Shown: in pieces, positions 3,690 to 62,616 of the stretch | Layout of the letters: every line of letters starts with the position of its first letter | Position numbering within the stretch: position 1 is the stretch's first letter | NCBI GenBank assembly: GCA_031548665.1 | Contig: JAVBQW010000029.1 | Location: 11,684-75,683 of the forward strand | Direction: 5' to 3' | Length of the DNA stretch: 64,000 nucleotides | DNA from: Thermoguttaceae bacterium | GTDB lineage: Bacteria; Planctomycetota; Planctomycetia; Pirellulales; Thermoguttaceae | Notes under the pieces: model-generated | What the model was told of the DNA's origin: nothing | The model's database searches: none | The model's input: the letters and a program-made list of their open reading frames with translations, nothing else | Made by a program: the position numbers and the translations under genes

Positions 3690-3711
3690 GAGCCGGGACC
3701 TGTGGTCCCGG
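3690..3711. repeat. PAL-B hairpin GAGCCGGGACC-TGT-GGTCCCGG (terminator-like)
   Basis: Perfect 8-bp stem with a 3-nt loop. Same motif at 7041, 7071, 27338, 29806, 57264 and 63869. Confidence 0.85.
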
Positions 3712-3770
3712 TCATAAAAAATGAAGAGATGCTTTCGGTCTCAACGGCGTCTGTCCAGAAATAAACGATC

Positions 3771-3814
3771 CAAAGAGCCCCAAGTGGAGGCGGTACTCCG
3801 CCGTAACTTGGGGG
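3771..3814. repeat. PAL-E palindrome CAAAGAGCCCCAAGTGGAGGCGGTACTCCGCCGTAACTTGGGGG
   Basis: Identical base for base to 36940..36983, which lies inside the UbiD-family ORF. Nested stems CCCCAAGT/ACTTGGGG and GGCGG/CCGCC. Confidence 0.9.
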
Positions 3815-3815
3815 T

Positions 3816-4176
3816 GGGAGCGTTTTCCAATTGGGGGCGAAAGATGGAGCAAAATACCGCGAGAAAGTTGTTGACTTTTGAATCTTCGGCCTGAAAGGCC
3901 ATTGCATTTCAGCCCAAGGCAAGGCGTACTCGCCGCCGCCCTGGGACCGGTCGTATTCACCAGCCGCCGCCCTGTAAGGGCAATGCCAAGCCGAGGTTGC
4001 ACTGCCCTTTCAGGCCGAACATTTCTTGGGGGCCGCCAACCCAGGGCGACGCCTTCGGCTCTGCCCTGGGCTGTGATGCAATGCCCCTCCGGGGCGAAAT
4101 CGGTTAAATATCAAATTTACGCGACTCTCTCGACTTTTCACGATCATTTCCGCACCCAATCTGAAAACGCTCCCCT
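3816..4176 (+). mobile_element. PAL-H composite ~350-bp element, copy 1 (array of hairpins with imperfect ~40-bp termini); boundaries approximate
   Basis: A core of ~260 bp (3844-4105) aligns by eye at roughly 90 percent identity to the reverse complement of 8680-8937. Internal hairpins include CCCAGGGC...GCCCTGGG. The ends CCAATTGGGGGCG / CGCACCCAATCTG are inverted. Confidence 0.7.
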
Positions 4177-4235: not shown

Positions 4236-7004
4236 TTAAATCTTTCGGAGCGTGATTTTTCGGAGGAAGACTTCGCCGCTTGGAATCGCGATCCGGAAAT
4301 CGGCGCCGTTCGCGCCGCGTCCGAAACCGGGATACTTGATCGGAAACACCGCTTCGCTCCAACGGCCTGACGATTTTTCGTCCGGTTTCAGGTTCTTGAC
4401 GACCGAACCGCGAAAATGTCTGGCCGTACCGCTGAGAGCCGGATCCGCGCTGTCATACTGAATCGTGAGCCACGGACAGCAGTCGGCGGCGTTTTCCGGC
4501 GGAAGGTATTCGACGACCAATTCATATTCCGCTCCCGGAGCCGGAGCGAAATAAGGCTCCGTGATGTTGAAATAAAGATATTTCCCGGCGACACGCCAAG
4601 CCTTGACGGTTTCGCCGTCGCCTCTTTTTACGTCGCGAATTTCCAGGGGGCCGTCGCCGTTTTGGGCCGGTCCGAAATTGACCGCCGCGATTCCGGAGTC
4701 TTTTTCCGGCGTTCCGCTCGGCGTCGGAAATTTCGGCTGGACGGAAATCTCTTTGAGTTGAACGTTTCGATGAAACAGGTCGGCGTAGCGCTTCGTCAGG
4801 TCGATGTATTTTCGTCCGTATTCTTTCGTTTCGCAGATTTCGGTTCCTTCATGATACTCGGTCCAGGTTTCGACGTGGACCCATTTCGCCCGGGTTTTCG
4901 GATCCTTGAGCAAAAGCTGTTCCCAGGAAAATTCGTAAAACTTGCCGTCGTCGCGGGAATTGACCAGCGGCTTGCGCGACCTGACGGCGGAGTGATCGTA
5001 TCCGGGACCCACGGCGGCGGTTTCCAAAAGTTGCGGTTTCAATGCCGCGCCCCAGCGATACACGCTGTCCGCTTTGCCCGGCCAACTCGCTTCTTTGACG
5101 ATAAACAGGTCGCAGCCGAATTCCTTCTTGAACATTTCCTTGACGGCGGGGAACAGCGTGTCGTCAACCGCTCGGGCAAAGGCCGCAGCGTAAAGAAAAA
5201 CGACCGGTTTGCCGTCGATGGTCGCTCGATGTTTCGGCGGAACCAGCGAGAAGAAATCCCGAATCGTTGCGTAGAACCAACGCTTTCCTTCGTCCTTCGT
5301 CAGGTCGACTTGGATTTTCTCGGCATTGTGCATCAGCGTGCTGGTATCGTAAAACATTGCGATACCGGCCGGTTTTTTTCCTTCGGCGAGAAGTTTTTCC
5401 CGGGCTTCGACCATCGGCGGAATGCCTTCGTTGCTGAACGCGAATCCTCCGGGCTGCTGTTTTTCCGGTGTTCCCCAATAGACGAGGATCGCGACGTCGA
5501 TTCCGGCCTTTTCGATGTCGACGAGTTGCGCTTTATGCCAGTCGACGGACTTCCAACTGATTCCTTCCAGCGTCGGCGGATGGTCGGTCAGCGCGTCGGA
5601 TCCGTCGGCGTTCAAAATATGGGCTTTGCTCGGCGTGTCGTACCAATAGAAATACGAGGTCGCGACGACTGGCGTTTCCTTGGAAAAGTCGACACCGGGA
5701 CCGCTGCCCACGAATTTTCCCGGAGCCGGCGGCAGCGGAGCTTGTTTCGGACGTTCTTTCGGCTGCTGCTTCGGACTCTTTTTCAAGGCTTCCGCCGCGT
5801 TACCGACAAGTTTCAGGTAAAAGTCGCTGGGGAGTCCCTCATAAGTCGAAAAGGGACTTTCGCCGACCGGGGGATTATTCGAACACTTAAAGATCGCGGT
5901 GCCTTCGTCGATTTCGTCGAACATCGCCTGGTAGATCATTCGGACGCCGCCGGCGAGATGAGCGTCGTATTGTGTTTGGAGAAATTCGCCTTTCAAACGG
6001 GGGGTCGCATTGAGTTGGGCTTCCGTTGCACGGGCTTTCATCAGATTATACCAACTGAACCCCGGATAGACGACCGGCAGGAATTCCTTGCCGTTTTTCG
6101 TACACCAAGCCAAATCGTCGTAAGCCGTGTTGGCGGCGTAATCGAAGGCGCCTTTCGGCGTTTTGTAGCGACCGACGGTCCACGGACTGGCGATATCCGC
6201 TTTGAGAATGATTTCGTGCAGCAACGGATCCTTGAGACTGTCGCCTTTCAATTCCCGCCAATAGGTCGGAATGCCGAGCATCACGGTGTTGCCGCCGTAT
6301 TTCGGATCGTCTTTCAGGAACGTGACGAGTTCGAGACATTGTTTGAGCGTATATTTCCGGTTGTCGTTGAAGCCGATTCCCCAAACCGCGACGACCGGCT
6401 TGCCGTTATGTTTTTGATACATTTTGTCCGACGTGATCTTGTTTTCGTCGATCAGGCGTTTCCAGTCGGCGATCAACGCATTGGGAAGCATTTCCCCGTT
6501 CGCGCCGGAAAGGTCGTACATCATCGCCCAGGTCCGGCCGTGTTGCGAGGCGCCGGCCCGGACGTTTTCCATGACGTTCTGTCGGGCGTTGCGACGCTTT
6601 TCGTCCGTCGTCGCTCCGATGAAGCGTTGCAGGAAGACGCCGTCGATTTTATTGTCCTTCATCCATTGAAAATGTCGGACGACGGTTTTCTTGACATGGG
6701 GACTGAAAACGTACGCCGTGGAACCGTCGGCGTGTTTGAACGGCGTCGCGAATTTTTCGTCGTCGTCCATTTCGCTCATATCGGGCCAGAGATCGAAGCA
6801 GCAGAATCCCGGTTCGAACTTGCCGTGGGCTCCGTAATGGGTCCAGCCGAACCCGGAGCCGTCTTTGTCGGCGTGATGCCAACCTTGGTAGCCGCACATC
6901 ACCTTGCCGACGAGCGTCGACGGATCGGCGTCCTGCGCGAACAGTGTGGAAATCGAAAAAACGGCGAACAGCGCCAACGAAAAAACACGTAATCGTTTCA
7001 TCAT
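4236..7004 (-). CDS. Secreted putative glycoside hydrolase with two TIM-barrel-like catalytic-type domains and a C-terminal beta-sandwich; family uncertain
   Basis: Long ORF. The first ATG pair is at 7004/7001; the track start at 7016 is a TTG. Signal peptide MMKRLRVFSLALFAVFSISTLFAQ. CGYQGWH...DLWPD...IDGVFLQRF in domain 1 and YFYWYD...DVAILVYWG in domain 2, joined by a P/K/Q-rich linker. Confidence 0.7.
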   Translation of the reverse strand: MMKRLRVFSLALFAVFSISTLFAQDADPSTLVGKVMCGYQGWHHADKDGSGFGWTHYGAHGKFEPGFCCFDLWPDMSEMDDDEKFATPFKHADGSTAYVFSPHVKKTVVRHFQWMKDNKIDGVFLQRFIGATTDEKRRNARQNVMENVRAGASQHGRTWAMMYDLSGANGEMLPNALIADWKRLIDENKITSDKMYQKHNGKPVVAVWGIGFNDNRKYTLKQCLELVTFLKDDPKYGGNTVMLGIPTYWRELKGDSLKDPLLHEIILKADIASPWTVGRYKTPKGAFDYAANTAYDDLAWCTKNGKEFLPVVYPGFSWYNLMKARATEAQLNATPRLKGEFLQTQYDAHLAGGVRMIYQAMFDEIDEGTAIFKCSNNPPVGESPFSTYEGLPSDFYLKLVGNAAEALKKSPKQQPKERPKQAPLPPAPGKFVGSGPGVDFSKETPVVATSYFYWYDTPSKAHILNADGSDALTDHPPTLEGISWKSVDWHKAQLVDIEKAGIDVAILVYWGTPEKQQPGGFAFSNEGIPPMVEAREKLLAEGKKPAGIAMFYDTSTLMHNAEKIQVDLTKDEGKRWFYATIRDFFSLVPPKHRATIDGKPVVFLYAAAFARAVDDTLFPAVKEMFKKEFGCDLFIVKEASWPGKADSVYRWGAALKPQLLETAAVGPGYDHSAVRSRKPLVNSRDDGKFYEFSWEQLLLKDPKTRAKWVHVETWTEYHEGTEICETKEYGRKYIDLTKRYADLFHRNVQLKEISVQPKFPTPSGTPEKDSGIAAVNFGPAQNGDGPLEIRDVKRGDGETVKAWRVAGKYLYFNITEPYFAPAPGAEYELVVEYLPPENAADCCPWLTIQYDSADPALSGTARHFRGSVVKNLKPDEKSSGRWSEAVFPIKYPGFGRGANGADFRIAIPSGEVFLRKITLRKI

Positions 7005-7040
7005 TTGTTTTTCCAAAGAAGATTGATTTGCAAGAGCTTA

Positions 7041-7095
7041 GGAGCCGGGACCTGTGGTCCCGAAAGCCCGGAAGAGCCGGGACCTGTGATCCCGG
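7041..7095. repeat. Two tandem PAL-B hairpins downstream of the DUF1559 gene
   Basis: GGAGCCGGGACCTGTGGTCCCG at 7041-7062 and GAAGAGCCGGGACCTGTGATCCCGG at 7071-7095. Confidence 0.8.
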
Positions 7096-7204
7096 AGTAG
7101 CGGGATCTCTCCATTGTCGCCGCTTCAGGATCCCGTTTCAAGAGCTCGGCAAAGTTTTTTTCCAAACCGCGTCGGCAGACGACGCGGTTGATCGACCGAC
7201 GATT

Positions 7205-8407
7205 CTATTCCATAATCGTCACGCTTTTGCCGTCATTGACAACGCTCAGCGGCAACAGAACTTCCCCGACTGGCGTGGTCACGCCGAGGCCCTTGACGGC
7301 GCCGTCGCCGAGAAGGAAATGGCAGATGCCGGGATGATAGCTGCCGAAAGAGGCTCGGTTACGAAGGTTGTCGGTCAAGTGGTCATTGGGACGTGCAATA
7401 CTACATTCAGTATCTTCGACAACCCAGTCGCTGCCTCTGAATCGGAACGCAAAACCTCGGAATGCGCCAAAGTTACGGTGTTGACCGCCCGCCTGATAAC
7501 CGCAATCGCTGTAGTACAAATTACTGTACGGGGCGGCGCCACTGTCGTTGCAGAGCCCGAGATAAGTGGGATGAATATGCTTTTCTCCCACAAGAATTTG
7601 ATTGCTGGTTCCATCCGACAACCAGGAGAAATCGTCGCGGCACCCCCAAGCTTTCTCTCGGGTTCCGTGAGTTGGCGAGACGCTTTTGGAGAGAAAAACC
7701 CGAAACGGCCCCCGAAACGGTTGATAGAAATTCACCTTGTTATCTCCCCAATTGTCTCTCCATGTTCTGCTCCAAGCTTCGACCATACGGGAGTTGGCCG
7801 CATCCGGCGCTATATCGGTGGCACTCTGCATTTCACCGTCGTAGGCCATGACTGCGGCATAATCGCTTTGCGGGCCCGGTGGAATGTTTCCCGTCACTTG
7901 CACGAATTCCTCCGATTTGATGTAAAGCGGACCTCCGCCACGGCGCGAGGGGCAGCGATAGATCGGAACGGAGCCGAATTGCCTGCGAACTTCATCCGAA
8001 TTTGTCCCCAATGCACCGTTGGGATTACCGGAATGTCCCCACCAAGCCTGATTGAATTCCTGATCGAAGTTACGTTCGACAACTTTATCATAGAGCTGCG
8101 GCTGTTCGATGAACGGATAGAGAAACAACCACATCGTCGCCCGGTTGATACCGATCCCGCACGGCGGCAGGCCTTTCATGGTATCGTGAAAATTGTGAAT
8201 GCCGATACCAATTTGTTTCATATGGCTCGCACATTGCATACGCCGTGCCGCTTCCCGGGCCGCCTGAATGGCCGGCAGCAGCAGCGCGATCAAGACGCCG
8301 ATGATCGCGATCACCACCAAAAGTTCAACGAGAGTAAATCCTCGCAACTTACCCCTCCCCCTCAGACAGCCACGTTTCGCGAAAAACCGCAACACAAACT
8401 TTTCCAT
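7205..8407 (-). CDS. DUF1559 / H-X9-DG protein with prepilin-type N-terminal cleavage/methylation domain
   Basis: [37 protein letters not shown] near the N-terminus and [16 protein letters not shown] (H-X9-DG) near the C-terminus. Confidence 0.9.
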
Positions 8408-8599: not shown

Positions 8600-8968
8600 C
8601 GAAACGTTTTCCGATTGGGGGCGAAAAAGAGAGCAAAATACAGCGAAAAATCGAGAGTGTCGCGTAAAAGTTGGTCTTTTACCGATTTCGCCCCGAAGGG
8701 GCATTGCATCACAGCCCAAGGCAGAGCCGAAGGCGTCGCCCTGGGTTGGCGAACCTCAAGGATTGTTCGCCCTGAAGGGCAGTGCAACACCGGCTTGGCA
8801 TTGCCCTTACAGGGCGGCGGTTGGCGAATACGACCGGTCCCAGGGCGGCGGCGAGTACGCCTTGCCCTGGGCTGAAATGCAATAGCCTTTCAGGCCGAAG
8901 ATTCAAAAGTCAATGACTTTCTCGCTGTATTTTGCTCCATGTTCCACCCCCCATCGGCAAACGCTCCC
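8600..8968 (-). mobile_element. PAL-H composite element, copy 2, inverted relative to copy 1; boundaries approximate
   Basis: The reverse complement aligns with 3816-4176. Termini are CCGATTGGGGGCG and CCCCCCATCGG. Confidence 0.7.
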
Positions 8969-9009
8969 AACGCTGCCGCCGCCCCCAATCGGCAAACGTT
9001 CCCGGGTTT

Positions 9010-13415: not shown

Positions 13416-13453
13416 TTCGAGGGACCTTTACGGTAGAATCTATTTTTCACCAA

Positions 13454-13497
13454 AAAGAGCCGGGGACGAAGCCGGTACTCCGGCGCAGTCCCCGGGC
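13454..13497. repeat. PAL-C palindrome AAAGAGCCGGGGAC-GAA-GCCGGTACTCCGGC-GCA-GTCCCCGG
   Basis: Outer stem CCGGGGAC/GTCCCCGG and inner stem GCCGG/CCGGC. Lies in the divergent intergenic region. Confidence 0.85.
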
Positions 13498-13514: not shown

Positions 13515-15089
13515 ATGAAAAATTTTCGTTTAATTTTCTTCGCCCTATTATCTCTTTTTGCGATATTTCTTGAAGCGGCGCCCCCCGACGCCTTGCGGCA
13601 GGCGGCGAACCAGGCGACGGTCGAGTATCGTAACGACTTGGAAAAGCTTGCCGACTGGGCCGCCAAACAGGGACTCCGTGCGGAGACGTTGCAGACACGG
13701 TCCGCCGTGTTGCCATCGGAGCCCGACAAAATTTTTCTGCCGAGTTTTCCGCTCGCCGTGGGAACCTTGGACCTTCCGAAGGGACTGCCGAGCAACCTGC
13801 CGAGAAAATACGCGGTCCTTTTTCTCTCCGGCGAAACGGCTTCGGAAAAGTCCGGTGACGCGTTGGAAAAAGAATCGGGCGTCGCGTTGGCGCCGCAAGA
13901 CGTTTGGCGGATTCAATTTCGTACGATCCGGACGAACTACGCCAAGCGGCTCCAGTTGCTGGCCAAGACGGCGGTCAAGGACCAGCGGGGTTCCCTGGCG
14001 GTCCAGTTGGCGGTCGCCGGACTCCACGCGAACCCCGATCACGAAGGTTTTCGAACCGTCTTCGGATTCGTCAAATACAAGGGCGAATGGCGAACGCCGT
14101 GGGAAGTCGAGCGACTGAAAAAGGATTTCGTCGATCATGAACGCTTCGGCTGGATCCCGAAGAAAGCGGTCGACCGTTACGAAAAAGGAGAACGGTATTG
14201 CAACGGCGAATGGATTCCCGAAACGGAAGACATCCGAAGGCATTCGGCGATTGAAAACGGTTGGAAAATCGAGTCGGAACACTACGATCTGACGACGAAT
14301 CACGGCATCGAGGAAGGCGTTCGGATGCTCCGGCAGAACGAGAATCTCTACCGGGCTTGGAAGCTGCTGTTTTTCCGTTACATGGCGACCGACGCGCAGC
14401 TTGCGACGCTTTTCAACGGCAAAATGGTCCCCGCGCCGCTTCGGCGGCACAAAATCGTTCTCTATCGGGACCGTGAAGATTTTCTCCGGGCCGAAAAGGC
14501 AAGGGGCGAAAAGGAACCCGAACGGTTCGCCGGAATGTACCGATATACCAACAAGGACGGTTGCTGTTATTTTTACGTCAGCGGTTCCCTGTCGATCATG
14601 TATCACGAGTCGACGCATCAACTGTTTCAAGAAACGAAAAACATCGCCGGGAACCAACTGTTGAGTGGCGTGGCGAAAAACGAACAGCCGTTGAACACCT
14701 GGCTCCGGGAGGGCGTCGCGATGCTCATGGAAACGCTCCAGGTCGACGAGGCCGGATATTACGTGATCGGCAACAAGAACAGCGGCCGGATCCGGTCGGC
14801 GAAACGGAATTTCCGTAACGATCGTTTTTTTCTGCCGTTTTCGGATCTCGCGGACATCGACGGTCGGGATTGGAAGTCTCACGAAAAAATGGGTTCGCTC
14901 TACGATCAATCGGCGGCGATGTTTTATTTTCTCATGTTTTACGAAAACGGTCGGTTGCGCGATCCGCTTGTCGTGTTGCTTCGGCTGCATTACGAGCAAA
15001 AGGACACGCGGCAGTCGATCGTCCAGTTGACCGGGATGAGTACCGACGAACTCGACGCCGCGTTCAAGGATTTTTTGAAAGAAAACTAA
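13515..15089 (+). CDS. Secreted HExxH protein (putative zinc metallopeptidase-like, DUF1570-like)
   Basis: Signal peptide MKNFRLIFFALLSLFAIFLEA and an HESTH motif in SIMYHESTHQLF. The family assignment is from memory. Confidence 0.7.
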   Translation: MKNFRLIFFALLSLFAIFLEAAPPDALRQAANQATVEYRNDLEKLADWAAKQGLRAETLQTRSAVLPSEPDKIFLPSFPLAVGTLDLPKGLPSNLPRKYAVLFLSGETASEKSGDALEKESGVALAPQDVWRIQFRTIRTNYAKRLQLLAKTAVKDQRGSLAVQLAVAGLHANPDHEGFRTVFGFVKYKGEWRTPWEVERLKKDFVDHERFGWIPKKAVDRYEKGERYCNGEWIPETEDIRRHSAIENGWKIESEHYDLTTNHGIEEGVRMLRQNENLYRAWKLLFFRYMATDAQLATLFNGKMVPAPLRRHKIVLYRDREDFLRAEKARGEKEPERFAGMYRYTNKDGCCYFYVSGSLSIMYHESTHQLFQETKNIAGNQLLSGVAKNEQPLNTWLREGVAMLMETLQVDEAGYYVIGNKNSGRIRSAKRNFRNDRFFLPFSDLADIDGRDWKSHEKMGSLYDQSAAMFYFLMFYENGRLRDPLVVLLRLHYEQKDTRQSIVQLTGMSTDELDAAFKDFLKEN

Positions 15090-15145
15090 ATTTTCACACG
15101 GCTTGCCGATCGTTTGCGTTTTAACCGCGCAGCGTGTCTTCGACG

Positions 15146-18100
15146 TTATTGTTCAACGAAAATTTCCACGTCGTCGATCCACAGCGTACCGGAAGCGCCG
15201 TTGAGACCGACCTGGACGGTGAGGCGTTCGAGCTTTTCCGGAACGGCGAATTCGGCAACGATTTGTTTCCAATCGAAGGTTCCGAGCAAATTCGGCGACG
15301 AATAATATTGCATTTTACCGCCGATTTGCGCGGCGAAGCGGATGCAGCCGACCTGCCAACCTTCGGGGCCCTTTTCGATCTTGTCCCCTTTGACCCACGC
15401 CGTGAGTTTCAGTTTCGAACCGACGGGAAACGCCTTGGCGTCGAGATCCTGGGCGAAGAGTCGATAATTCGCGATTTCGCCGACGACCTGGGCCGACGCG
15501 CTGCCGGAATGTTTTTCCGAAACGGATATCGAGCCTCCTTGCGGCGTCTGCCAACCGCCGAACTGTTTTCGGTCTCCCTTCAACACGACGCCGGTTCGGA
15601 GCGACACGAGATCGTTTCCGAACGAATTTTCGAACCCGCCGTCGGCGATGATCGAATTTTCAGAGCCCGACGCGTCAGCGAGGGGAGCGGCGTTGGTCCC
15701 TCGCTGACGCTTCGGGCTCTGTTGTTTGTCGTCGACGAAAACCGTTGCGGCAAACGAACGCCAACGGTTCGGCGGTCCGACCGCATCGCGATCGTCGAAC
15801 GTTACGAAAAAGTTCTTACGATCCAAAAAGAGCTTTGACGCGGCATCCCCGTCGACATTCGAAAACCGCAACAACACCGATTGATCGGACGATCTCAACA
15901 CGGCGGCATCCACCTCATTTAGCCGGTACTCCGGCGATCTTCCCTTGGCGTCGACGTTCGTTCCCGTCGCAACGGATTTCCCGTCCTTAAAATACTCGAA
16001 CGTTTCGACCCGATCCATGGGAAAGATCGCCGCGAGAAAGCCCTTGTTGTCGGTCGGCATTCGGGACGTTTTGACACCGTAATTCAGATCGAACGCCGAA
16101 TCGTCGCCGAGAGCGTATTCGATGAAATACTCGACGGGAGGCCGCAGCAAATCGAAGCGACCGTTATGCCGGAGTTGTCCTTCGAATCGCAGCCGCATCA
16201 CGTCGCCGTCCTGCACGATTCGGCAGGCCGCTTCGACGTCGTCCGCGGCGGCGTAACGCATTTTCTTGTCGCTGTAACCGTAATCGGTGTAAAGATCGCC
16301 TTGCCGTATTAAAGAGCCGGGGACGGAGCGGTACTCCGCGCAGTCCTCGGATTGAGCGACGTTCCCGGTCCGGGGATTGCGCTCCGCTCCATCCCCGGCT
16401 CTTTGCGTGTCGTTCGAGACTTTTCGATCGAGCGACGTAATCGTACCGCTCCGCGATATTCGCAATCGATAATGATCGTTCTCGTAAATCCAACCGCCGA
16501 TTGCGCGACGGAAATTCGGATTCGGCGGATCTTTGGGATCGGTCGGCGGTAGTCCGAAGAACAACGTGAACGCCGGTTCCGTCGCCAATCGGGGAGCCGT
16601 TTCGTCGGTCCACGAAACGAGCAACGACAATTCCTTCTTTTCACCGATTCGATCCAATATCCGTACACGGGCCGGTGGGGTGTCGTCTAAAAGCACCGGC
16701 AACAGACCGCATGAAACCGAGTTGTTGGAGCGCAACGGATAAAACGGCGTCAACAACGAATCGAAGATCACGTTCGTTCCTTGCGGTCGCCAATAGATGG
16801 AGCCGTAAACGCCGTCCGTTGTCAAATGTCGTGGTTGATAATGTTCGACAAAGAAATCCCACGGCGTCAGGACGTTCCAATGCGGAAATCGGCTGTCGGG
16901 CACCGAAAAGTTAATTGCCGCATTGGGGGGAATGTCCGTTCCCGTCCAACGGCTCGTCATCCGAAAACAAGGAAGGAAGTAATCCCTTTTTCCTTCGTTG
17001 GAATAAACGATTTCAAGTGTTGCGTTTCCGAACTTTCGGTGGACGGTAATCTCTTTGTCTTTTTGAACGATAATCGGTTTCTCGGCCTTTGCAAGGTATT
17101 CGGGCGGCAGGAACAGGTCCGCTTTGCCGAGAAGAGACGGATCTTTCTCCCAATTACACAACGCGAGAAGTCCGTCTTTGGGATCAATGTAAGCCGTATA
17201 TTTGTTTTCCAAGGGAAAAACAATCGCATCGACTTCGGGCTTGAGTTGCTCGGGAGCTTCCTCTTTTCGTGTCGCTTTCGAAATGGACCCAATAACGTTT
17301 TTGAAACCCTTCAACTTGTCGATTTCAGACTGATTTTTCCTGAAAACGATAAAATTGACACCAAAGGGACCGGGCGAAAAATACTTTATTTGAACATGAT
17401 CGTCGACAATCTCCATATTCGATATTTTGTCCAAAATCCAAGGGGGTGAAACATAGCAAGCCTCGGCGTCTTTCGTTTTCAATATCGATGGAAGTTTGTT
17501 CAACGGCATCCGAAGCGTTCCGTTCTCAACCTTGTCACGAAAATCGATCATCGCGATGCAGGCGTCGTCCCCTTTGGTACGCAACACGGCGAACACGCCC
17601 GGCGGCACATCGACGGCAAGATAATCGGCGTCGCCGCCTTGCAATTCCGGTAACACATTCCGTTGTGAGAATATTTTGCGTACATCATCGAAATTGCCGT
17701 CTTCCTGTTCGTGATACACGAGCGGAATGCCGTGGATGAACGCCGTCAGCGCAACCAGCGCCCGATGCGGTTCGACGCCGTACCAAAGTTGTCCCCGTAG
17801 CGAATCGTGAGACTCGACATGCCGCAACCGCAGCAGGTCGGGGATGTCCGAATACTGTTGTTCGTGCAGCCAACGGCGTAAACGTTTCACAAATTCTTCC
17901 GGCGTCTGCTTGCGAGAGTCCTGAAGCACGCTGTAACATAAATCGAAATCGTACACCGCGTCGCTCACCGCTCCGAAAATGCTGCCGTTCACCTCGGCGA
18001 GGATCGCGCCGTCCGGTTTCTGGTCCTTCACCGCCTTGCGAATCGCCCGGAGCATGTTAAAGCCTCCCTGCGATTGCGAATGGGACGCCCGACTGTACGG

Positions 18101-19477
18101 AATCGCCGGATTCCAGTTCGGAATCTTGCTCCCGCCGCAAGCGTCGACGCGGTATCCGTCGATATCGTACTCTTTCACATAATACCGTGACACGTCGGCC
18201 ATGTAGTCGATCCAACTCGGCCAATTGAAATCGAAACACCAATAATCGAGCGTCGAACCGTCTTCTTCCTGCACGAGCCATTCCGGATGTTTTTTGGCCC
18301 GGTCGTTCGTATTGCTCCCGCCGTGCGGCACGTTGTCCTGGAGAACCTTCAAGCCGAGTTCGTGAGCCCGCTTCACCAAGGTTCGATATTCTTCCGCCGC
18401 TTTTTCCGGCGTCGAACCCAAGCCGTCCTGAAATTTGTAATAGTCCCGCGGATGGTAAATCGACTTGTCCTCCAGCGGCATCAACCAGATCGCGTTGCAG
18501 CCGAGTTCCTTGATCCGATCCAACAATTTCGTCGCCGGAACGAACCCGCCGAGATCCTTGCAACCGCTCCCGATGGTTCCACCGGGATGGAAACTGTACA
18601 GGATCGCCGATTCGAACCATTTCGGACGGTCCTTCGGGACAACGTGTCCGAGCCGTCGCATCAAATCGTGGATTTTGAGCAGCGCGGTTTCCGAGTCGCC
18701 GTCGACGATTTTTAAATATCCGACGCCGAGGTATTGCTTGCCCGCAAGTCCCGGCTTGACGTGTCCCTTGACGTCGAAACTCTGCGTCAGCCGCACGCCG
18801 CCGTCCCGTCGCTCGATTCCGCTGCTCGGTCTGTCGGCGTAGTCGATCAAATTGTCCGAAAGAAGGATCACGCTCTTTGTCTTGTCGAGTTGAAAGACCA
18901 GCGGAGCGGAATCCTTCCAACTTCCCTGTCGAGCCCCCTGGGGAAAATTGTCCGGCGTGAACTTTTTCGGGGGATATTGGGCCGGAACGAAAAATTCGGC
19001 GTTCGTTTCAAACGGAAAGGTCGGGTACGCCATCCAGAAATTTTTGAGCTTTGTCGGTTCCTTGCCGTTCCAAGTCAGTTCGACGTTTCGGCCGAGCGTT
19101 GCCGTGGGAATATCGACGGAATACCGAAACATTACGGTCCAGTCGCCGAGTTTGTACGTTGCGTTGACGACGGAATCCGACTCTTTTTTGATTTCGACGA
19201 GCTTCGGCGGGTTTTTGTGGAAGATCCAGTCCGCGTCCTGCATCACGTCGAAGAACTGCGGGACGACGGCGCTGTCCGGGGACTGCGCCGAGTACGGCTT
19301 CGTCCCCGGCTCTTTGAGGGAGATTATTTCGCCTTTGGAAAGAATTTCCGTGAGGACGCCGGTTCGGTCGTCAAAACGGATCGCAAAGGTTTCCGAATTG
19401 CCGAGCTCCAGGGCCGGACAAACGGAACAGGAAAAAACGAACGCCAAAAAAAGAAGATAGTGTTTCATGAACCCCAT
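15146..19477 (-). CDS. Giant secreted GH13 (alpha-amylase family) enzyme with a C-terminal CBM4/9-like module
   Basis: GH13 regions GCNAIWLMP, DGYRVDA, ILAEVNG and HVESHD. The C-terminal segment IADGGFE...TLWIDDVEIFVEQ is typical of CBM4/9. Alternative start at MKHYLL (19468). Confidence 0.85.
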   Translation of the reverse strand: MGFMKHYLLFLAFVFSCSVCPALELGNSETFAIRFDDRTGVLTEILSKGEIISLKEPGTKPYSAQSPDSAVVPQFFDVMQDADWIFHKNPPKLVEIKKESDSVVNATYKLGDWTVMFRYSVDIPTATLGRNVELTWNGKEPTKLKNFWMAYPTFPFETNAEFFVPAQYPPKKFTPDNFPQGARQGSWKDSAPLVFQLDKTKSVILLSDNLIDYADRPSSGIERRDGGVRLTQSFDVKGHVKPGLAGKQYLGVGYLKIVDGDSETALLKIHDLMRRLGHVVPKDRPKWFESAILYSFHPGGTIGSGCKDLGGFVPATKLLDRIKELGCNAIWLMPLEDKSIYHPRDYYKFQDGLGSTPEKAAEEYRTLVKRAHELGLKVLQDNVPHGGSNTNDRAKKHPEWLVQEEDGSTLDYWCFDFNWPSWIDYMADVSRYYVKEYDIDGYRVDACGGSKIPNWNPAIPYSRASHSQSQGGFNMLRAIRKAVKDQKPDGAILAEVNGSIFGAVSDAVYDFDLCYSVLQDSRKQTPEEFVKRLRRWLHEQQYSDIPDLLRLRHVESHDSLRGQLWYGVEPHRALVALTAFIHGIPLVYHEQEDGNFDDVRKIFSQRNVLPELQGGDADYLAVDVPPGVFAVLRTKGDDACIAMIDFRDKVENGTLRMPLNKLPSILKTKDAEACYVSPPWILDKISNMEIVDDHVQIKYFSPGPFGVNFIVFRKNQSEIDKLKGFKNVIGSISKATRKEEAPEQLKPEVDAIVFPLENKYTAYIDPKDGLLALCNWEKDPSLLGKADLFLPPEYLAKAEKPIIVQKDKEITVHRKFGNATLEIVYSNEGKRDYFLPCFRMTSRWTGTDIPPNAAINFSVPDSRFPHWNVLTPWDFFVEHYQPRHLTTDGVYGSIYWRPQGTNVIFDSLLTPFYPLRSNNSVSCGLLPVLLDDTPPARVRILDRIGEKKELSLLVSWTDETAPRLATEPAFTLFFGLPPTDPKDPPNPNFRRAIGGWIYENDHYRLRISRSGTITSLDRKVSNDTQRAGDGAERNPRTGNVAQSEDCAEYRSVPGSLIRQGDLYTDYGYSDKKMRYAAADDVEAACRIVQDGDVMRLRFEGQLRHNGRFDLLRPPVEYFIEYALGDDSAFDLNYGVKTSRMPTDNKGFLAAIFPMDRVETFEYFKDGKSVATGTNVDAKGRSPEYRLNEVDAAVLRSSDQSVLLRFSNVDGDAASKLFLDRKNFFVTFDDRDAVGPPNRWRSFAATVFVDDKQQSPKRQRGTNAAPLADASGSENSIIADGGFENSFGNDLVSLRTGVVLKGDRKQFGGWQTPQGGSISVSEKHSGSASAQVVGEIANYRLFAQDLDAKAFPVGSKLKLTAWVKGDKIEKGPEGWQVGCIRFAAQIGGKMQYYSSPNLLGTFDWKQIVAEFAVPEKLERLTVQVGLNGASGTLWIDDVEIFVEQ
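15661..15721. repeat. PAL-F long hairpin inside the GH13 ORF
   Basis: CAGAGCCCGACGCGTCAGCGAGGG...CCCTCGCTGACGCTTCGGGCTCTG with a 23/24 stem. Read on the minus strand as QSPKRQRGTNAAPLADASGSE. Relative at 32447-32505. Confidence 0.85.
15914..15936. repeat. PAL-G 23-mer CTCATTTAGCCGGTACTCCGGCG inside the GH13 ORF
   Basis: Identical to 37991..38013. Read on the minus strand as SPEYRLNEV. Confidence 0.9.
16311..16350. repeat. PAL-C palindrome inside the GH13 ORF
   Basis: AAAGAGCCGGGGACGGAGCGGTACTCCGCGCAGTCCTCGG. Read on the minus strand as SEDCAEYRSVPGSL. Confidence 0.85.
19276..19314. repeat. PAL-C palindrome (opposite orientation) inside the GH13 ORF
   Basis: CCGGGGACTGCGCCGAGTACGGCTTCGTCCCCGGCTCTT. 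Read on the minus strand as KEPGTKPYSAQSPD. Confidence 0.85.
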
Positions 19478-19538
19478 TTTACGGGATCCAACCGGCGGCG
19501 TCCAGCGATCCGCTTGCGTTTTAGCCGCGCAGCGCGTC

Positions 19539-20315
19539 TTAAACTCCCGGAACGACGATTTTGAGCGGCAGCGTCGGATGGTCGACGAACTGGAAGTCGA
19601 CGTGATAGATGCTCCGAAGATGTTCCGGCTCCATCAGGTATTTCGGACTGCCGTCGAAGCAAATCGAGCCGTTGGACAGGGCGATGACGTGAGTTGCGTC
19701 GAGGACCGCCCGATTGACGTCGTGAGTTACCTCGACGATCGTTTTCCTCCGTTGTTGGTTGAACGTTCGCAGAAGGTTGCCGATCTCGCGTTGATGTTTG
19801 TAATCGAGATAGGTCGTCGGCTCATCGAGGAACAGCACGTCGGCTTCCTGGGCGAGCGCCGCCGCGATTTGGACCTTTTGCCGTTCGCCGCCGCTGAGCG
19901 AGTCGACGAACCGGTCGGCAAGGTCCGTAACGCCCATCGTTTCCATGGCGTCGTCGACGATCCGTTGATCGGCTTCCGAAATCGGCGAAAACGGCTTCAG
20001 ATGCGGATACCGCCCCATTTCGACGATCTGCCGAACTTTGAACGCGAAGACCGGCTGCATCGCCTGCCGAACGTACGCAATTCGCCGGGAAAGGATTTTG
20101 CGCGGAATCCGTTTGACGGAGGTTCCGTCGAAAAAAATCTCACCGCTCCAGGAATTCAGGAGCAGGTCGATACATTTCAAGAGCGTCGTCTTTCCGGCGC
20201 CGTTCGGACCGATGATCGCAAGGTATTCCCCTTGTTCCACGTCGAACGACAGGTCGTCCAACAGGAGCCGGTCGTTGCGACGGAGAGCCAGATGGCGGAC
20301 GGAAAGCAAGGACAT
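19539..20315 (-). CDS. ABC transporter ATP-binding protein (FepC/BtuD-like), with no permease or binding protein nearby
   Basis: Walker A GPNGAGKTT, signature LSGGERQK, Walker B VLFLDEP. Start moved to MSLLSVRHL because the first ATG (20360) lies inside the PAL-A element. Confidence 0.85.
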   Translation of the reverse strand: MSLLSVRHLALRRNDRLLLDDLSFDVEQGEYLAIIGPNGAGKTTLLKCIDLLLNSWSGEIFFDGTSVKRIPRKILSRRIAYVRQAMQPVFAFKVRQIVEMGRYPHLKPFSPISEADQRIVDDAMETMGVTDLADRFVDSLSGGERQKVQIAAALAQEADVLFLDEPTTYLDYKHQREIGNLLRTFNQQRRKTIVEVTHDVNRAVLDATHVIALSNGSICFDGSPKYLMEPEHLRSIYHVDFQFVDHPTLPLKIVVPGV

Positions 20316-20355
20316 GGAAAATCTCAGAAAATCGCTTTTCTGAAAGCTAAATTCC

Positions 20356-20477
20356 GTCATCCCCGCGAAGGCGGGGACCTAGAGAACAGATTTCAATAGG
20401 CTTCTTGCACACGTTATTGACGGATGCAAACGGTCGACAACATCTTCCGTCTAGGTCCCCGCCTGCGCGGGGATGAC
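20356..20477. mobile_element. PAL-A MITE-like element, copy 2 (122 bp)
   Basis: GTCATCCCCGCGAAGGCGGGGACCTAGA...TCTAGGTCCCCGCCTGCGCGGGGATGAC. The internal part is the reverse complement of the internal part of copy 4. Confidence 0.9.
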
Positions 20478-20497
20478 GAAAAAGAGACCACACGATC

Positions 20498-23911: not shown

Positions 23912-23964
23912 ATGAAATGGGAGATATTTTGATATTTCCGTACAGATTTCGCGAAAAAACGTTC

Positions 23965-24066
23965 GTCATCCCCGCGAAGGCGGGGACCTAGACGGAAGGC
24001 GTTATTAACCGTTTGCACACTCTTAACTTGCGGCGATGCAAAGGGTTGGAAAATTTACTCTCTAGG
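23965..24066. mobile_element. PAL-A MITE-like element, copy 3, truncated in its right terminal repeat
   Basis: The full left TIR and internal region are present. The right TIR stops after TCTAGG, where the 154-bp element begins. Confidence 0.8.
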
Positions 24067-27337: not shown

Positions 27338-27361
27338 AAGAGCCGGGACCTGCGGTCCCGG
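27338..27361. repeat. PAL-B hairpin between convergent genes (likely bidirectional terminator)
   Basis: AAGAGCCGGGACC-TGC-GGTCCCGG, lying between stop 27319 (+) and stop 27380 (-). Confidence 0.8.
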
Positions 27362-27379
27362 TTCCCGAGTCTATCTCGC

Positions 27380-29805: not shown

Positions 29806-29828
29806 GGAGCCGGGACCTGCGGTCCCGG
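29806..29828. repeat. PAL-B hairpin
   Basis: GGAGCCGGGACC-TGC-GGTCCCGG. Confidence 0.85.
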
Positions 29829-29941
29829 TCTTTCGTCGTCATTGTACCTTGGACGCCTTCGAAAGAAAACCGGTAAAAAGTGAATTTTTCGAGGGCGATT
29901 TGTCACAGAGGAAAAGAAAACGTGAAATTGTGGGGCCGTCC

Positions 29942-32418: not shown

Positions 32419-32505
32419 CGGTTTTTCAGAGCCCGAAGCCGGTTTTTCAGAGCCCGAAGCGTAAGCGCGGGGTTAGAACACAACCCCTCGCTTACGCTTC
32501 GGGCT
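32419..32505. repeat. PAL-F hairpin preceded by a direct duplication of its head (20 bp, 21-bp period)
   Basis: GGTTTTTCAGAGCCCGAAGC occurs at 32419-32438 and 32440-32459. Hairpin CAGAGCCCGAAGCGTAAGCGCGGGG…CCCCTCGCTTACGCTTCGGGCTC (22/23) at 32447-32505, just after the hydrogenase stop. Confidence 0.85.
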
Positions 32506-32577
32506 CCGTTTCACTCAAGGAGTACAATCCCTCGGACCCTGTTCGTTTCGGGTTCGACGTTTGATGTTGTATTCGCT

Positions 32578-33399: not shown

Positions 33400-34809
33400 A
33401 TGCAAGAAAAAGAAAAGGAAAAAGCGTGGAGCGGCGTCTTCACGGAGGGAACCGACCGCCGCGTCGAATTGTTCACGGAAAGTATCAGTTTCGACCGACG
33501 GCTCTACGAAGTTGATATTCGAGGCTCCATCGCCCACGCCCGGATGTTGCAGGACGTCGGTATCCTGACGGAGGACGAATTCCGTCAAATCGAGGAATCG
33601 TTGGTCGAGATTCGTCGGAACATCGAAGACGGAACCTTCGTGTTCAACATCGAGCTCGAAGACATTCATATGCACATCGAGCACGCGCTGATCGAAAAAA
33701 TCGGCGACGTGGGGCGGAAGCTGCATACGGCACGCAGCCGGAACGATCAGGTCGTTACGGATCTTCGGCTCTGGGTTCGGGACGCCCTCGACCGAATCGA
33801 CCGCCGATTGTTGGATGTCCAGGCGGCGTTTGTCGGTCGCTGCGAATCGGATTTCGACGTGATCTTGCCGGGATACACCCATCTCCAGCGGGCTCAGCCG
33901 GTGCTTGCGCCCCATTATTGGCTGGCGTACTGCGAAAAGTTCCAACGGGACCGGGAACGACTCCGGGATTGTCGAAAGCGAGTCAACATTCTCGGTCTCG
34001 GTGCCGCGGCCCTTGCCGGAACCAGTCTTCCCATCGACCGAGCCAAGACGGCGGAGTATCTCGGCTTCGAACGCATCGCGGCAAACAGTCTCGACGTGTC
34101 CAGCGATCGGGATTTCGTTCTCGAAGCGGCGTTCTGCCTCGTTGAAATCGCGATCCATACGAGTACCTTGGCCGAGGAATGGATTCTCTGGTCGACCTCG
34201 GAGTTCAATTTTCTGCGACCGCCGCAGCCGTTCTGTACCGGTTCGTCCATCATGCCGCAGAAGGTCAATCCGGACGTCCTCGAACTGATCCGCGGCAAGA
34301 CGGCAAGAGTCGTCGGCAGCCTTCAAACGCTGCTCGTTCTGACGAAGGGACTTCCCTTGGCGTATAATCGGGACCTGCAGGAAGACAAGCAGCCGATTTT
34401 CGACGCCTTCGATACCGTGGAAGCCGTGCTGAATCTCGCCGCTCCGCTGGTCGAAGGGGCGACGCTGCAACGGGAGTCGATCCGCGCTCGTTTGGAGCTC
34501 GGATATCTCGACGCCACGGTCCTGATGGAATATCTCATCAAGAAAAACGTTCCGCAACGGACGGCCCACGGAATCGTCGGCCGACTCGTCCGGACCGCCA
34601 TGGAACGCGGCAAGCCGCTCGCCGCGCTGCCGTTGCAGGTCTTCCACGAGGTTTACGAAGGCTTCGATTACAACGTCTTTGAAGAGGTTCTGGGCTCGGA
34701 AAAAGCCGTCGCCGCAATGAAAAGCTACGGTTCGACCGCTCCGTCCGAAGTTCGGCGTCAGATCGAGTTCTGGAAGGAAAAAATCGACAAGGACTACCGC
34801 AACATTTAG
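33400..34809 (+). CDS. argH: Argininosuccinate lyase
   Basis: [10 protein letters not shown]…, [10 protein letters not shown], and the fumarate-lyase signature [11 protein letters not shown]. Start set at [12 protein letters not shown]; the track ORF starts upstream at 33277. Confidence 0.92.
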
Positions 34810-34874
34810 CCGGTACTCCAGTCATCCCCTTTAGCCGGTACCCCGGTCCTCCCCATTTAGCCGGTATTCCGGCT
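34802..34874 (+). repeat. Three tandem PAL-G units (about 25-bp period) overlapping the argH stop codon
   Basis: TTTAGCCGGTA begins at 34805, 34830 and 34856. The argH TAG stop is the TAG of the first unit. Confidence 0.85.
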
Positions 34875-34880
34875 TTTTTT
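34859..34880 (+). terminator. Rho-independent terminator formed by the last PAL-G unit
   Basis: AGCCGG-TATT-CCGGCT followed by T7. Confidence 0.65.
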
Positions 34881-34882
34881 GC

Positions 34883-34911
34883 TTGCCGGACGTTCCTCGC
34901 CGTCGTATAAT
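34883..34911 (+). promoter_or_regulatory. Sigma70-like promoter TTGCCG-N17-TATAAT
   Basis: Boxes at 34883-34888 and 34906-34911, upstream of the DUF1559 gene. Confidence 0.4.
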
Positions 34912-37999: not shown

Positions 38000-38013
38000 C
38001 CGGTACTCCGGCG
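37991..38013. repeat. PAL-G 23-mer overlapping the UbiD-family stop codon
   Basis: CTCATTTAGCCGGTACTCCGGCG. The codons CTC ATT TAG end the ORF. Confidence 0.9.
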
Positions 38014-42789: not shown

Positions 42790-42928
42790 TTAGTGTTCCG
42801 AACAGAATGAAACCTCGAATATGTTTTTTCGAGCGGCAATCGCAACAACGGTGATTGAAGTTCGTTCCGTCCGTCAGTGCGCCAGAATACCGGCTCCCTT
42901 CCGGCTGTTGTATTACCCCCAACGAATC

Positions 42929-50041: not shown

Positions 50042-50053
50042 ACGAGGATTTTT

Positions 50054-50128
50054 TCACACGGAGGCACAGAGGCACGGAGAGGAAGATGAATTGAAAATAT
50101 TCCTCCGTGCCCCCGTGCCTCCGTGTGA
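50054..50128. repeat. Long imperfect inverted repeat TCACACGGAGGCAC-NNN-GGCACGGAG … CTCCGTGCC-NNN-GTGCCTCCGTGTGA
   Basis: Two ~26-nt arms with a 3-nt internal mismatch and an AT-rich ~22-nt loop. Lies between the GH2 and GH43-like genes. Confidence 0.8.
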
Positions 50129-50162
50129 AACAAAATGAATTACATTTCAGTATCGATCCATC

Positions 50163-52462: not shown

Positions 52463-52514
52463 ATTTTCGCTCGACAACAACATCGCCGAGGTTTTCTACT
52501 GTCCGGAACACCAA

Positions 52515-52572
52515 CCATCCGGGGGCTACGGCGGGGTATTGTTTCTCTGGCCGCCTACACCCCCGGCTCTTG
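52515..52572. repeat. PAL-D' hairpin between convergent genes
   Basis: CCATCCGGGGGCTACGGCGG-loop-CCGCCTACACCCCCGGCTCTTG. Confidence 0.8.
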
Positions 52573-52586
52573 AGTTGAACCTTTTT

Positions 52587-54623: not shown

Positions 54624-54862
54624 CTGATCCCTCAGCGTATGTTTTGACGGACTCCATTCCAGGCGCGCAGACGCCGCCGGTTCTTTTCGTATGATCGAAC
54701 CAATCGTTAGGAACCGATTGCGAAACGTACCGGTTTCGACGTATTTTCTCGTCGAGTCGGTCGGGTGATGCCGGTTTGTTCGGTCGATCCGAAGAATCCG
54801 GTCGTTCCGTAGATACCGAACGTTCCGGTTCGGTAAGATTTAAGGGCGATGCAGATAGGAAC

Positions 54863-54983
54863 GTCATCCCCGCGAAGGCGGGGACCCAGACGGAAAACGT
54901 GATTGATCGTTTGCATCCGTCAATAACGTGTGCAAGAACCTATTGGAATCTGCTCTCTAGGTCCCCGCCTGCGCGGGGATGAC
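54863..54983. mobile_element. PAL-A MITE-like element, copy 4 (121 bp)
   Basis: GTCATCCCCGCGAAGGCGGGGACCCAGA…TCTAGGTCCCCGCCTGCGCGGGGATGAC. Confidence 0.9.
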
Positions 54984-55011
54984 GGAATGAGGAGCGAATC
55001 GTTTCGACGGA

Positions 55012-57120: not shown

Positions 57121-57263
57121 AAAATGTTCCTTGTCGACGAAAATGGATGAAAAAGAGGATCGGAAAACGAGAAACCTGCATTTTACAGAGAATCCCGACA
57201 GGTTCAATCCCCCGAACCAACCGCGTTTTCGGTGTTTGGGTGAGAAGGGGACCTTTTCAGGAT

Positions 57264-57285
57264 CGGGACCGCAGGTCCCGGCTCT
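57264..57285. repeat. PAL-B hairpin downstream of the FGGY kinase gene
   Basis: CGGGACC-GCA-GGTCCCGGCTCT. Confidence 0.85.
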
Positions 57286-57307
57286 GCGTTGATTTTTTCG
57301 GCCGTTC

Positions 57308-58984: not shown

Positions 58985-59120
58985 GACCGGAGTACCGGCT
59001 AAATGAGGACCGGGGTACCGGCTAAATAAGGACCGGAGTACCGGCTAAATAAGGACCGGAGTACCGGCTAAATAAGGACCGGGGTACCGGCTAAATGAGG
59101 ACCGGAGTACCGGCTAAAAT
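58985..59120. repeat. Tandem array of about 5.9 PAL-G units of 23 bp (GACCGGRGTACCGGCTAAATRAG)
   Basis: Units start at 58985, 59008, 59031, 59054, 59077 and 59100 and abut directly. The unit is the reverse complement of the 23-mer at 15914 and 37991. Confidence 0.95.
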
Positions 59121-62511: not shown

Positions 62512-62551
62512 CCGGGGACTGCGCGGAGTACCGCTTCGTCCCCGGCTCTTT
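62512..62551. repeat. PAL-C palindrome (reverse orientation), intergenic
   Basis: CCGGGGACTGCGCGGAGTACCGCTTCGTCCCCGGCTCTTT. Confidence 0.85.
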
Positions 62552-62616
62552 AGTTTGGCGACAAAACAACAGCCGGAATGGAGGCGTACTCGCCGCAATG
62601 ACGGTCGTTCGGCGTG

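Follow-up and report, generated by a model that had tools for sequence, protein, structure and literature searches.

Palindromic repeat units read in frame within a GH13 gene of a Thermoguttaceae bacterium

A 64,000-nucleotide stretch of DNA from a Thermoguttaceae bacterium of the Planctomycetes-Verrucomicrobia-Chlamydiae (PVC) group, comprising positions 11,684 to 75,683 of contig JAVBQW010000029.1 (assembly GCA_031548665.1) and referred to here as the window, was analysed with regard to palindromic repeats that are read in frame within a GH13 gene. The gene, for a large enzyme of the starch type, lies on the minus strand at 15146–19477 and is a stop-free open reading frame (ORF) of 1443 amino acids (aa). 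The protein is laid out as a signal peptide, an N-terminal beta domain, the GH13 catalytic domain, a beta-rich C-terminal region, a linker and a CBM_4_9-like domain. The GH13 domain was recovered from Pfam (PF00128, E=4.5e-16), while the CBM_4_9 match at aa 1275–1425 scored 20.1 bits, under the Pfam cut-off of 25.9. More than 100 full-length orthologs of ~1350–1420 aa are colinear with the protein end to end, and its catalytic residues are intact in the ortholog alignment. The original prediction for this gene, made from the sequence alone, was that four palindromic insertions from three repeat families are read through in frame. A 1443-codon ORF carrying GH13 and a C-terminal CBM in one frame was recovered as proposed, with the CBM match being sub-threshold in Pfam; the translations of the four proposed peptides were reproduced exactly, and palindromic repeat DNA is indeed translated in frame within an otherwise intact GH13 gene. 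All four of the listed elements were found, but a fifth unit had been overlooked, as the element placed at 16311–16350 is part of a dimer spanning 16311–16404.

Orthologs were compared in a protein alignment (n=21), to which intermediate orthologs were added afterwards, and DNA was back-aligned for the three closest, P0002 (80% identity), P0003 (63%) and P0004 (64%). P0002 is encoded in EPI_MAG_00135, a Thermoguttaceae/Planctomycetaceae metagenome-assembled genome (MAG). In the gene tree the window copy (WIN) pairs with P0002 and P0003 pairs with P0004, ((WIN,P0002),(P0003,P0004)), with P0005-8/P0052 as the sister group, and each repeat event in the GH13 gene is congruent with a single origin on this tree. 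The genes of WIN and P0003 are 67% identical at the DNA level, and all net length changes in the ORF are multiples of three. Two AlphaFold models were computed from 56-sequence alignments, one for aa 700–1443 (predicted template modelling score, pTM, 0.88) and one for aa 1–720 (pTM 0.92). Hairpin z-scores were obtained by DNA folding against shuffled controls, and the elements in WIN fold as hairpins beyond the shuffles with z=-9.6 for PAL-F, -6.3 for the PAL-C dimer and -4.3 for the single PAL-C unit; RNA folding energies of the elements range from -23 to -104 kcal/mol. Divergence between WIN and the 80% ortholog (L001 10001–14275) is mosaic, third-position differences spanning 12% (aa 401–450) to 56% (aa 51–100), which suggests either recombination tracts or very uneven constraint.

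On the alignment, the net insertions in the GH13 gene relative to its orthologs are the two PAL-C sites only. PAL-C copies are mutually 88–95% identical, and the PAL-C head was matched 8 times in the window compared to 0.35 matches expected by chance. A single 42-nt unit near the N-terminus (19275–19315, minus strand), with the head AAAGAGCC on the sense strand, is read as KEPGTKPYSAQSPD at aa 55–68. It is missing from all 21 aligned orthologs and was found only in this genome, where it adds a net 14 codons relative to most orthologs and 8 relative to P0002. In the model it is coil, with a predicted local distance difference test score (pLDDT) below 50 at residues 60–65. The second site is made up of two units arranged tail to tail across a 19-nt spacer, bringing the units in the gene to five. 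Unit A together with the spacer (16351–16404, minus strand) is read as QRAGDGAERNPRTGNVAQ at aa 1025–1042, and unit B (16311–16350, plus strand), the head of which lies on the antisense strand, is read as SEDCAEYRSVPGSL at aa 1043–1056. This dimer corresponds to a net gain of ~30–32 codons (~96 nt) and falls in a clean gap in the aligned orthologs except for P0002, which carries the same dimer at the same codons as WIN. The dimer, confined to WIN and P0002, arose in their common ancestor. It is modelled as a loop between two beta-strands with pLDDT below 50 (model residues 325–350). No direct duplication was apparent by eye beside 16311–16404 or 19275–19315, where the empty sites are too diverged for exact boundaries. 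Predicted junction peptides of read-through include IISLKEPGTKPYSAQSPDSAVVPQ and NDTQRAGDGAER...VPGSLIR.

PAL-F is a 61-nt near-perfect palindrome (15661–15721, no strand assigned) that is read as QSPKRQRGTNAAPLADASGSE at aa 1253–1273, in the linker before the CBM. Its arm was matched 4 times in the window compared to 0.00 expected. An intergenic relative (32444–32510, no strand assigned) has kept the arms with a different loop, and the two are identical at 45/61 positions (74%). The linker is hypervariable; it measures 32 aa both in WIN and in P0052, where the element is missing, and PAL-F adds no length to the gene. The segment is modelled as coil with pLDDT 54–64. In P0002 the palindrome has decayed (z=-1.6 vs -9.6 in WIN). 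The P0003 linker contains a different hairpin, resembling a further repeat of the window termed D9 (z=-3.6), and as this hairpin is independent of PAL-F the linker has been struck more than once. A palindrome considered in the P0004 linker was dismissed as non-significant (z=-1.0), leaving that of P0003 as the significant one of the two.

PAL-G is represented in the gene by a 23-mer (15913–15935, plus strand) encoding SPEYRLNEV at aa 1181–1189. The 23-mer was matched 8 times in the window compared to 0.00 expected, and a copy at 37990–38012 (plus strand) that overlaps the 3' end of a UbiD gene is identical to it at 23/23 positions. In P0052 and P0008 the segment is equally long (RSPEYRLNEVDAAVL in the window vs RSFETKNVLPQKIVL), and a peptide of the type S-x-E-x-R-[LI]-N-[ED]-V-D is common to the P0001-P0004 clade (4/4). 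In P0004 the peptide SQESRINEVD is retained on much-diverged DNA (CAAGAATCTCGAATCAACGAAG; loss of the palindrome was judged by eye). WIN and P0003 match at 20/21 nt or more at this site, one of only 11 places that conserved in the gene. In the model the segment is ordered, with pLDDT ~94. From the aligned sequences, PAL-G in the GH13 gene is a same-length replacement within the clade of four orthologs and no insertion. It is consistent with an old patch that may derive from a repeat. Insertion of PAL-G, as proposed at first, is thus refuted on grounds that the proposal had itself named, the peptide being kept in P0004 with diverged DNA, at equal length and in an ordered segment. The expectation that each segment would be an insertion placed in a surface loop or linker was accordingly borne out in part; both PAL-C sites are net insertions and, together with PAL-F, lie in low-confidence coils or the linker, while PAL-F and PAL-G leave the length unchanged and PAL-G is ordered. 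The P0003 ortholog (L004) also contains PAL-G-like 19–20-mers in opposite orientations at ~5194–5220 and ~5590–5615, one of them at the site of WIN's PAL-C dimer with length unchanged and the other at the PAL-G site.

A repeat census of the window was made by self-BLAST, which took the place of an exact-stem hairpin census that was overly strict and missed imperfect elements. Across the 64 kb this gave ~30 element sites, of which some two thirds are intergenic and about a third intragenic. The heads are AAAGAG/CC in PAL-C and D9, CAGAG/CC in PAL-F, CAAGAG/CC in a further repeat, D8, and TTTAG/CC in PAL-G, such that in PAL-C, PAL-F, D8 and D9 alike an (A)AGAGCC start leads into a variable, G+C-rich stem. 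PAL-C copies in several genomes have the PAL-G core as their inner hairpin; in the window this core occurs in the same position, as AGCCGGTACTCCGGCG, in an intergenic PAL-C copy at 13451–13495 (plus strand). The division into three families was therefore overstated, since a head of the (A)AGAGCC type is common to all and the PAL-G core lies within a PAL-C variant. The description of the relatives as near-identical applies to PAL-G (23/23) and PAL-C (88–95%) but not to PAL-F (74%). They had also been taken to be intergenic throughout, which is incorrect for the copy at 45434–45476, situated inside a GH106 gene. A further intergenic PAL-C copy (62512–62552, minus strand) lies immediately downstream of an ATPase gene. 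PAL-G also forms tandem arrays, one intergenic with 3–4 units (34796–34888, plus strand) and one of ~6 units with a 23-bp period between divergent genes (58985–59118, minus strand), the latter array overlapping with the initial ATG of the ATPase ORF. Elements within an ORF at 52173–54524(+) were set aside as intragenic cases because the ORF is spurious, the real gene being on the minus strand, and they are intergenic.

Repeat units are also read in frame in other genes of the window. In the GH106 gene (42821–46741) the PAL-C copy at 45434–45476 (plus strand) is read as KEPGTERTRAVPGP at aa 873–886; that it is an insertion is weakly suggested by comparison with a 26%-identical paralog, and a search of the GH106 protein against PDB gave no match. 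The UbiD gene (36188–37999) contains a D9 unit (36939–36984, plus strand; AAAGAGCCCCAAGT...) in frame at aa 251–266 that is identical at 46/46 positions to an intergenic copy at 3770–3815. Two dimers are found in a gene for a P-type Ca-ATPase. The first (59703–59792, plus strand) is a 90-nt tail-to-tail dimer of the CAAGAGCCGGGGG... family, in frame at aa 203–233 in the actuator domain; the second, with an extra unit (61309–61440, plus strand), is in frame at aa 739–782, and its 89-nt core (61330–61418) shares 97% identity with the first dimer. PMCA structures offer nothing equivalent to residues 202–240 and 743–783 of the query, which indicates two insertions at the elements. The two 89-nt dimers are in direct orientation, 1626 nt apart in the one gene; they appear to be of recent origin, and recombination between them could cause a deletion. 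The UbiD ORF, of 603 aa, is ~100 aa longer than E. coli UbiD, and its TAG stop (37997–37999) lies inside the PAL-G unit at its 3' end, the repeat thus providing the final codons and the stop.

The distribution of PAL-C in other genomes was evaluated by scanning for its head in 185,579 species genomes (596 Gb), for which ~35 chance matches were expected. This resulted in 42 copies at 40 loci in Thermoguttaceae/Planctomycetaceae MAGs, including EPI_MAG_00135, and in scattered single matches elsewhere, roughly the number expected by chance. In the related MAGs ~16 of the 42 copies are within ORFs and 26 are not inside long ORFs. Ten intragenic copies fall in ORFs of at least 634 aa, eight of which are Pfam-supported. 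The carriers include DNA Pol I, a Ser/Thr kinase, DsbD, two M56 peptidases (one with two copies), a secretin and a WD40 protein. In Pol I the repeat sits in the linker joining the 5'-3' exonuclease to the Klenow part. The peptides vary by gene (KEPGT..., QRAGDG..., ...CAEYxSVPGSL, VRGLR...RPRLL) as the units are read in several frames and in both orientations. The number of stop-free frames in the elements equals that of composition-preserving shuffles (70% G+C), and coding adaptation of the elements was rejected on this result. The PAL-G core, by comparison, was counted 10 times in the window vs 4 times in 303 kb of related genomes, two of these in the P0003 ortholog. On a 1.7-kb contig of Thermoguttaceae WFFMC_MAG_220 (L060), PAL-C copies at 334–374 and 1579–1619 are in direct orientation and enclose an AT-rich gene whose product is a secreted protein of ~390 aa and whose base composition looks foreign next to the 56% G+C of the window. 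This locus was considered as a possible 'REPtron', on account of a RayT match (E=0.43) between the two copies, and was rejected as the gene there encodes the AT-rich secreted protein.

We favour the explanation, to which we assign a probability of roughly 0.75, that the segments are copies of a superfamily resembling repetitive extragenic palindromic (REP) sequences and their hairpin-forming doublets (REPINs), which proliferated in the Thermoguttaceae clade and is tolerated in loops and linkers. It builds on observations of repeat identity, hairpin potential, in-frame reading, presence or absence in orthologs, siting in loops and linkers, and recurrence elsewhere. The units would be elements of ~25–60 nt with an (A)AGAGCC head beside a G+C-rich stem, often joined as tail-to-tail dimers of 90–135 nt, and copies would land mainly between genes with a large minority within coding regions. 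At ~70% G+C the units have mostly stop-free frames from composition alone, and hence a length change divisible by three suffices to keep an ORF open. Selection would then spare copies at permissive positions, such as surface loops and interdomain linkers, where they would encode 13–45 mostly disordered residues. The GH13 protein is presumably made with the residues encoded by its repeats. The GH13 gene may in this way present a time series. The oldest event would be the PAL-G-type patch, which four orthologs have in common and which has become part of the ordered fold, followed by the PAL-C dimer and PAL-F, probably gained in the ancestor of this genome and EPI_MAG_00135, and the youngest would be the PAL-C unit present in this genome alone. 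Spread may have taken place via a hairpin-recognising single-strand transposase (RAYT, the REP-associated tyrosine transposase, or IS200-like) or via short-patch recombination, and by analogy with known repeats of this kind mobilisation by a Y1 (RAYT / IS200-like) transposase is presumed.

Several results weigh against this explanation. Simple insertion leaves unexplained the same-length PAL-G segment and the PAL-F linker that gained no length. The N-terminal PAL-C copy comes from a single assembly. Neither the GTAG nor the CGTC tag of described REP superfamilies is present in the elements. A tblastn search of the window and 303 kb of Thermoguttaceae loci, a small fraction of the genomes, with E. 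coli RayT as the one, distant probe gave a best match of E=0.43 to a non-transposase gene. No transposase was found in Pfam scans of 31 window ORFs.

The PAL-G segment, and perhaps that of PAL-F, could instead be native sequence or a same-length conversion patch. Even an origin of the intergenic copies in the gene is conceivable, or the match could stem from short-patch gene conversion in which a repeat unit acted on a native segment loosely resembling it. We regard this as possible, although clearly the less probable account. The unaltered lengths at both sites agree with it, as do the ordered PAL-G fold, a motif [ST]-x-[EQ]-x-[KR] at the PAL-G site that is family-wide, the P0004 peptide on DNA much diverged (its palindrome lost as judged by eye), and the enrichment of the PAL-G core in the window over related DNA, where two of the four copies are those in the P0003 ortholog. 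It fits poorly with the 23/23 PAL-G match, which includes a non-palindromic tail and has an expectation of 0.00, and with the PAL-F palindrome, which at 61 nt and z=-9.6 is unlike native coding sequence. The conservation between WIN and P0003 at the PAL-G site, matched at so few places in the gene, also speaks against it, and the PAL-G core inside PAL-C hairpins of several genomes points in the direction of repeat to gene. Assembly artefact or pseudogenisation, with repeat-induced misjoins in a MAG producing the ORF, is very improbable. The source does appear to be a MAG, and the exact protein is found on one contig with the N-terminal copy lacking independent confirmation; yet the independent EPI_MAG_00135 has the dimer and PAL-F at the same codons, the flanks of every element are colinear with orthologs, the net length changes are all divisible by three and the catalytic residues are intact.

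Superfamily proliferation was further compared with two explanations of how the hairpins came to be where they are or are kept there. The dimers might be miniature inverted-repeat transposable elements (MITEs), derived by deletion from a DDE-type insertion sequence and bounded by terminal inverted repeats, as bacterial MITEs in coding regions have been described (Correia/NEMIS, Nezha; PMC3733652). MITEs are likewise small non-autonomous repeats with terminal inverted repeats that can be co-transcribed and can occasionally extend ORFs, the 90–135-nt dimers are in the MITE size range with terminal inverted repeats AAAGAGCCGGGGA... / CAAGAGCCGGGGG..., and the RayT probe detected no RAYT in the DNA searched. 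MITEs are, however, DDE-derived with target-site duplications, whereas here the 40-nt hairpin is the module: single 40-nt units are common and dispersed alone, unlike MITE halves, filled sites examined by eye show no apparent target-site duplication, and the window ORFs scanned contain no transposase of any kind. We hold this origin to be unlikely. Retention of the in-gene hairpins by selection for a nucleic-acid function, be it in mRNA stability, in the pausing of translation at domain boundaries or as a site of DNA binding or topology, appears slightly less plausible still. The dimer differs between WIN and P0002 at 6/99 nt, compared to 18.5% gene-wide, with two of the six differences forming a compensatory inner-stem pair, and PAL-F in WIN is still a near-perfect palindrome while the P0002 copy has decayed. 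Purifying selection specific to the dimer, at first given a binomial P=3e-4, was removed by a flank control in which the neighbouring 100 codons proved equally conserved (right flank 7.3% nt, 16% third positions). Since the flanks are as conserved as the dimer, the low divergence is regional and element-specific selection is rejected. Moreover, PAL-F decay in P0002 is at background rate, and the genes struck are unrelated, with many frames and orientations. A search of the whole window against Rfam at gathering thresholds was negative. Terminator-like sites in 15000–19700 numbered 4 vs 9.0 in shuffles, and none of them is an in-gene element acting as an intrinsic terminator.

Repeats of this general kind are known. 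The GTAG- and CGTC-tagged superfamilies of REPs were defined by Di Nocera, De Gregorio & Rocco (2013), who found intragenic in-frame REPs in many species, foremost in the verrucomicrobium Opitutus terrae of the PVC group (PMC3733652). For O. terrae the supplement holds ~70 intragenic REP entries, including an HrpA gene struck by two families, and the main text describes Pol I and UvrA decorated with REPs; Rhodopirellula baltica has 8 intragenic entries, those displayed being in small hypothetical ORFs, and the authors proposed that REPs sit in flexible loops and linkers (PMC3733652). The suggestion that the phenomenon is undescribed in PVC bacteria is hence contradicted by the ~70 entries of O. 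terrae and 8 of R. baltica already published (PMC3733652). A literature search found no paper on such repeats in Thermoguttaceae. The elements studied here share with those of O. terrae the short G+C-rich stem-loops with a conserved unpaired head, present as singles and inverted dimers that are mostly extragenic, with some in frame in known proteins (DNA Pol I in both). In both, one gene can be struck twice by different families, and the published dimers encode 20–30 aa. They differ in a head of AGAG(CC) or TTAG(CC) rather than GTAG/CGTC, in their Thermoguttaceae hosts, in a RAYT not being found here by the E. coli probe in the window and 303 kb, and in a higher intragenic share (~1/3 of window sites and ~16/42 PAL-C copies, vs ~70 entries in a whole genome).

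The REP traits of a short stem-loop palindrome (PAL-C 40–42 nt, PAL-F 61 nt), of dispersed copies that are mainly extragenic and of inverted dimers are all present, and in place of a GTAG/CGTC tetranucleotide at the stem end there is a conserved head of other sequence. REPINs and bacterial interspersed mosaic elements (BIMEs) with their RAYT transposases were reportedly described by Bertels & Rainey in 2011 and Nunvar et al. in 2010. Like REPINs, the elements form tail-to-tail dimers with a short spacer and one long hairpin (16311–16404, 59703–59792, 61330–61418); association with a RAYT is a defining trait of REPINs, for which the E. coli RayT probe gave no credible match in the DNA searched, and REPINs are described as extragenic. 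Rickettsia palindromic elements (RPE), which are said to go back to Ogata et al. in 2000 and 2002, are similar in being palindromic repeats in frame in many unrelated functional genes, tolerated at surface positions and of differing age. The siting in frame at surface or non-core positions, a trait of RPE, was found here as well. RPE-1 is described as keeping to a single reading frame and yielding one family of peptides, in contrast to PAL-C, which is read in several frames and both orientations, and the elements have no known sequence likeness to RPE-1. The hosts also differ, a gut planctomycete with a presumably large genome as opposed to a reduced obligate intracellular alphaproteobacterium.

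New here are the AGAGCC-head family, the Thermoguttaceae host clade and the notably dense occurrence within genes; the phenomenon as such is already known. A more far-reaching and rather doubtful proposal is that the repeats constitute an undescribed 'AGAG-tagged' REP superfamily in Thermoguttaceae with the highest in-frame intragenic density yet, at least 10 units in five genes per 64 kb. On that same speculative proposal the density would be several-fold over a rough estimate of ~70 entries in the ~6 Mb genome of O. terrae. Were it true, conserved enzymes would regularly obtain new sequence for loops and linkers from repeat units, including same-length patches, one of which, PAL-G, would have been domesticated into an ordered segment and kept throughout the history of the four-ortholog clade. 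The present findings extend in-frame colonisation from Rickettsia and Opitutus to gut-associated Planctomycetota, with the GH13 gene offering an unusually clear dated series (old, intermediate and recent) in one gene on a confident structural model. In practical terms the elements lengthen proteins, give spurious 'novel' loops in metagenomic catalogues of carbohydrate-active enzymes (CAZymes) and can give rise to misassemblies. Should the density within genes prove as high across the whole genome, the clade would lend itself well to studying, in a natural system, how selfish hairpin DNA turns into protein.

Other repeats were observed in the window. A separate CGTC-tagged family, (T)CGTCATCCCCGCGAAGGCGGGGACCTAGA, with a stem-loop, occurs at 421–455, 527–569, 20351–20483, 23956–24017 and 54862–54988. 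This family (CGTCATCCCCGCGAAGGCGGGGAC) is absent from the GH13 gene, its copies being seen between genes or at ORF edges, and it forms inverted pairs ~66 nt apart (e.g. 20352–20383 / 20450–20481), like REPINs of the published CGTC superfamily. Inverted repeats of ~370 nt (3770–4139 / 8605–8969), 88–92% identical and with smaller palindromes of their own, bracket a GH99-like gene (4236–7016) and a DUF1559 gene (7205–8407); the arrangement may constitute either a composite mobile unit or a regulatory region that was duplicated. There are at least 7 copies of a further family of small hairpins, GAGCCGGGACCTGYGGTCCCGG, among them those at 3690–3713, 7042–7097, 27339–27362, 29807–29830, 57260–57292 and 63866–63898. 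They are nearly all intergenic, and the one copy that falls within the initial 12 codons of an FAD-oxidoreductase ORF probably precedes the real start. The minus-strand gene at 52587–54623 encodes a 678-aa secreted protein with long low-complexity repeats, Met/Asn/Pro/Gly and Gln-rich (MNPMMGG..., QQQMQQ...). At 50052–50130, between a GH2 gene and the next gene, there is an isolated inverted repeat, TTTCACACGGAGGCACAGAGGCACGGAG / CTCCGTGCCCCCGTGCCTCCGTGTGAAA, that is unrelated to the other families.

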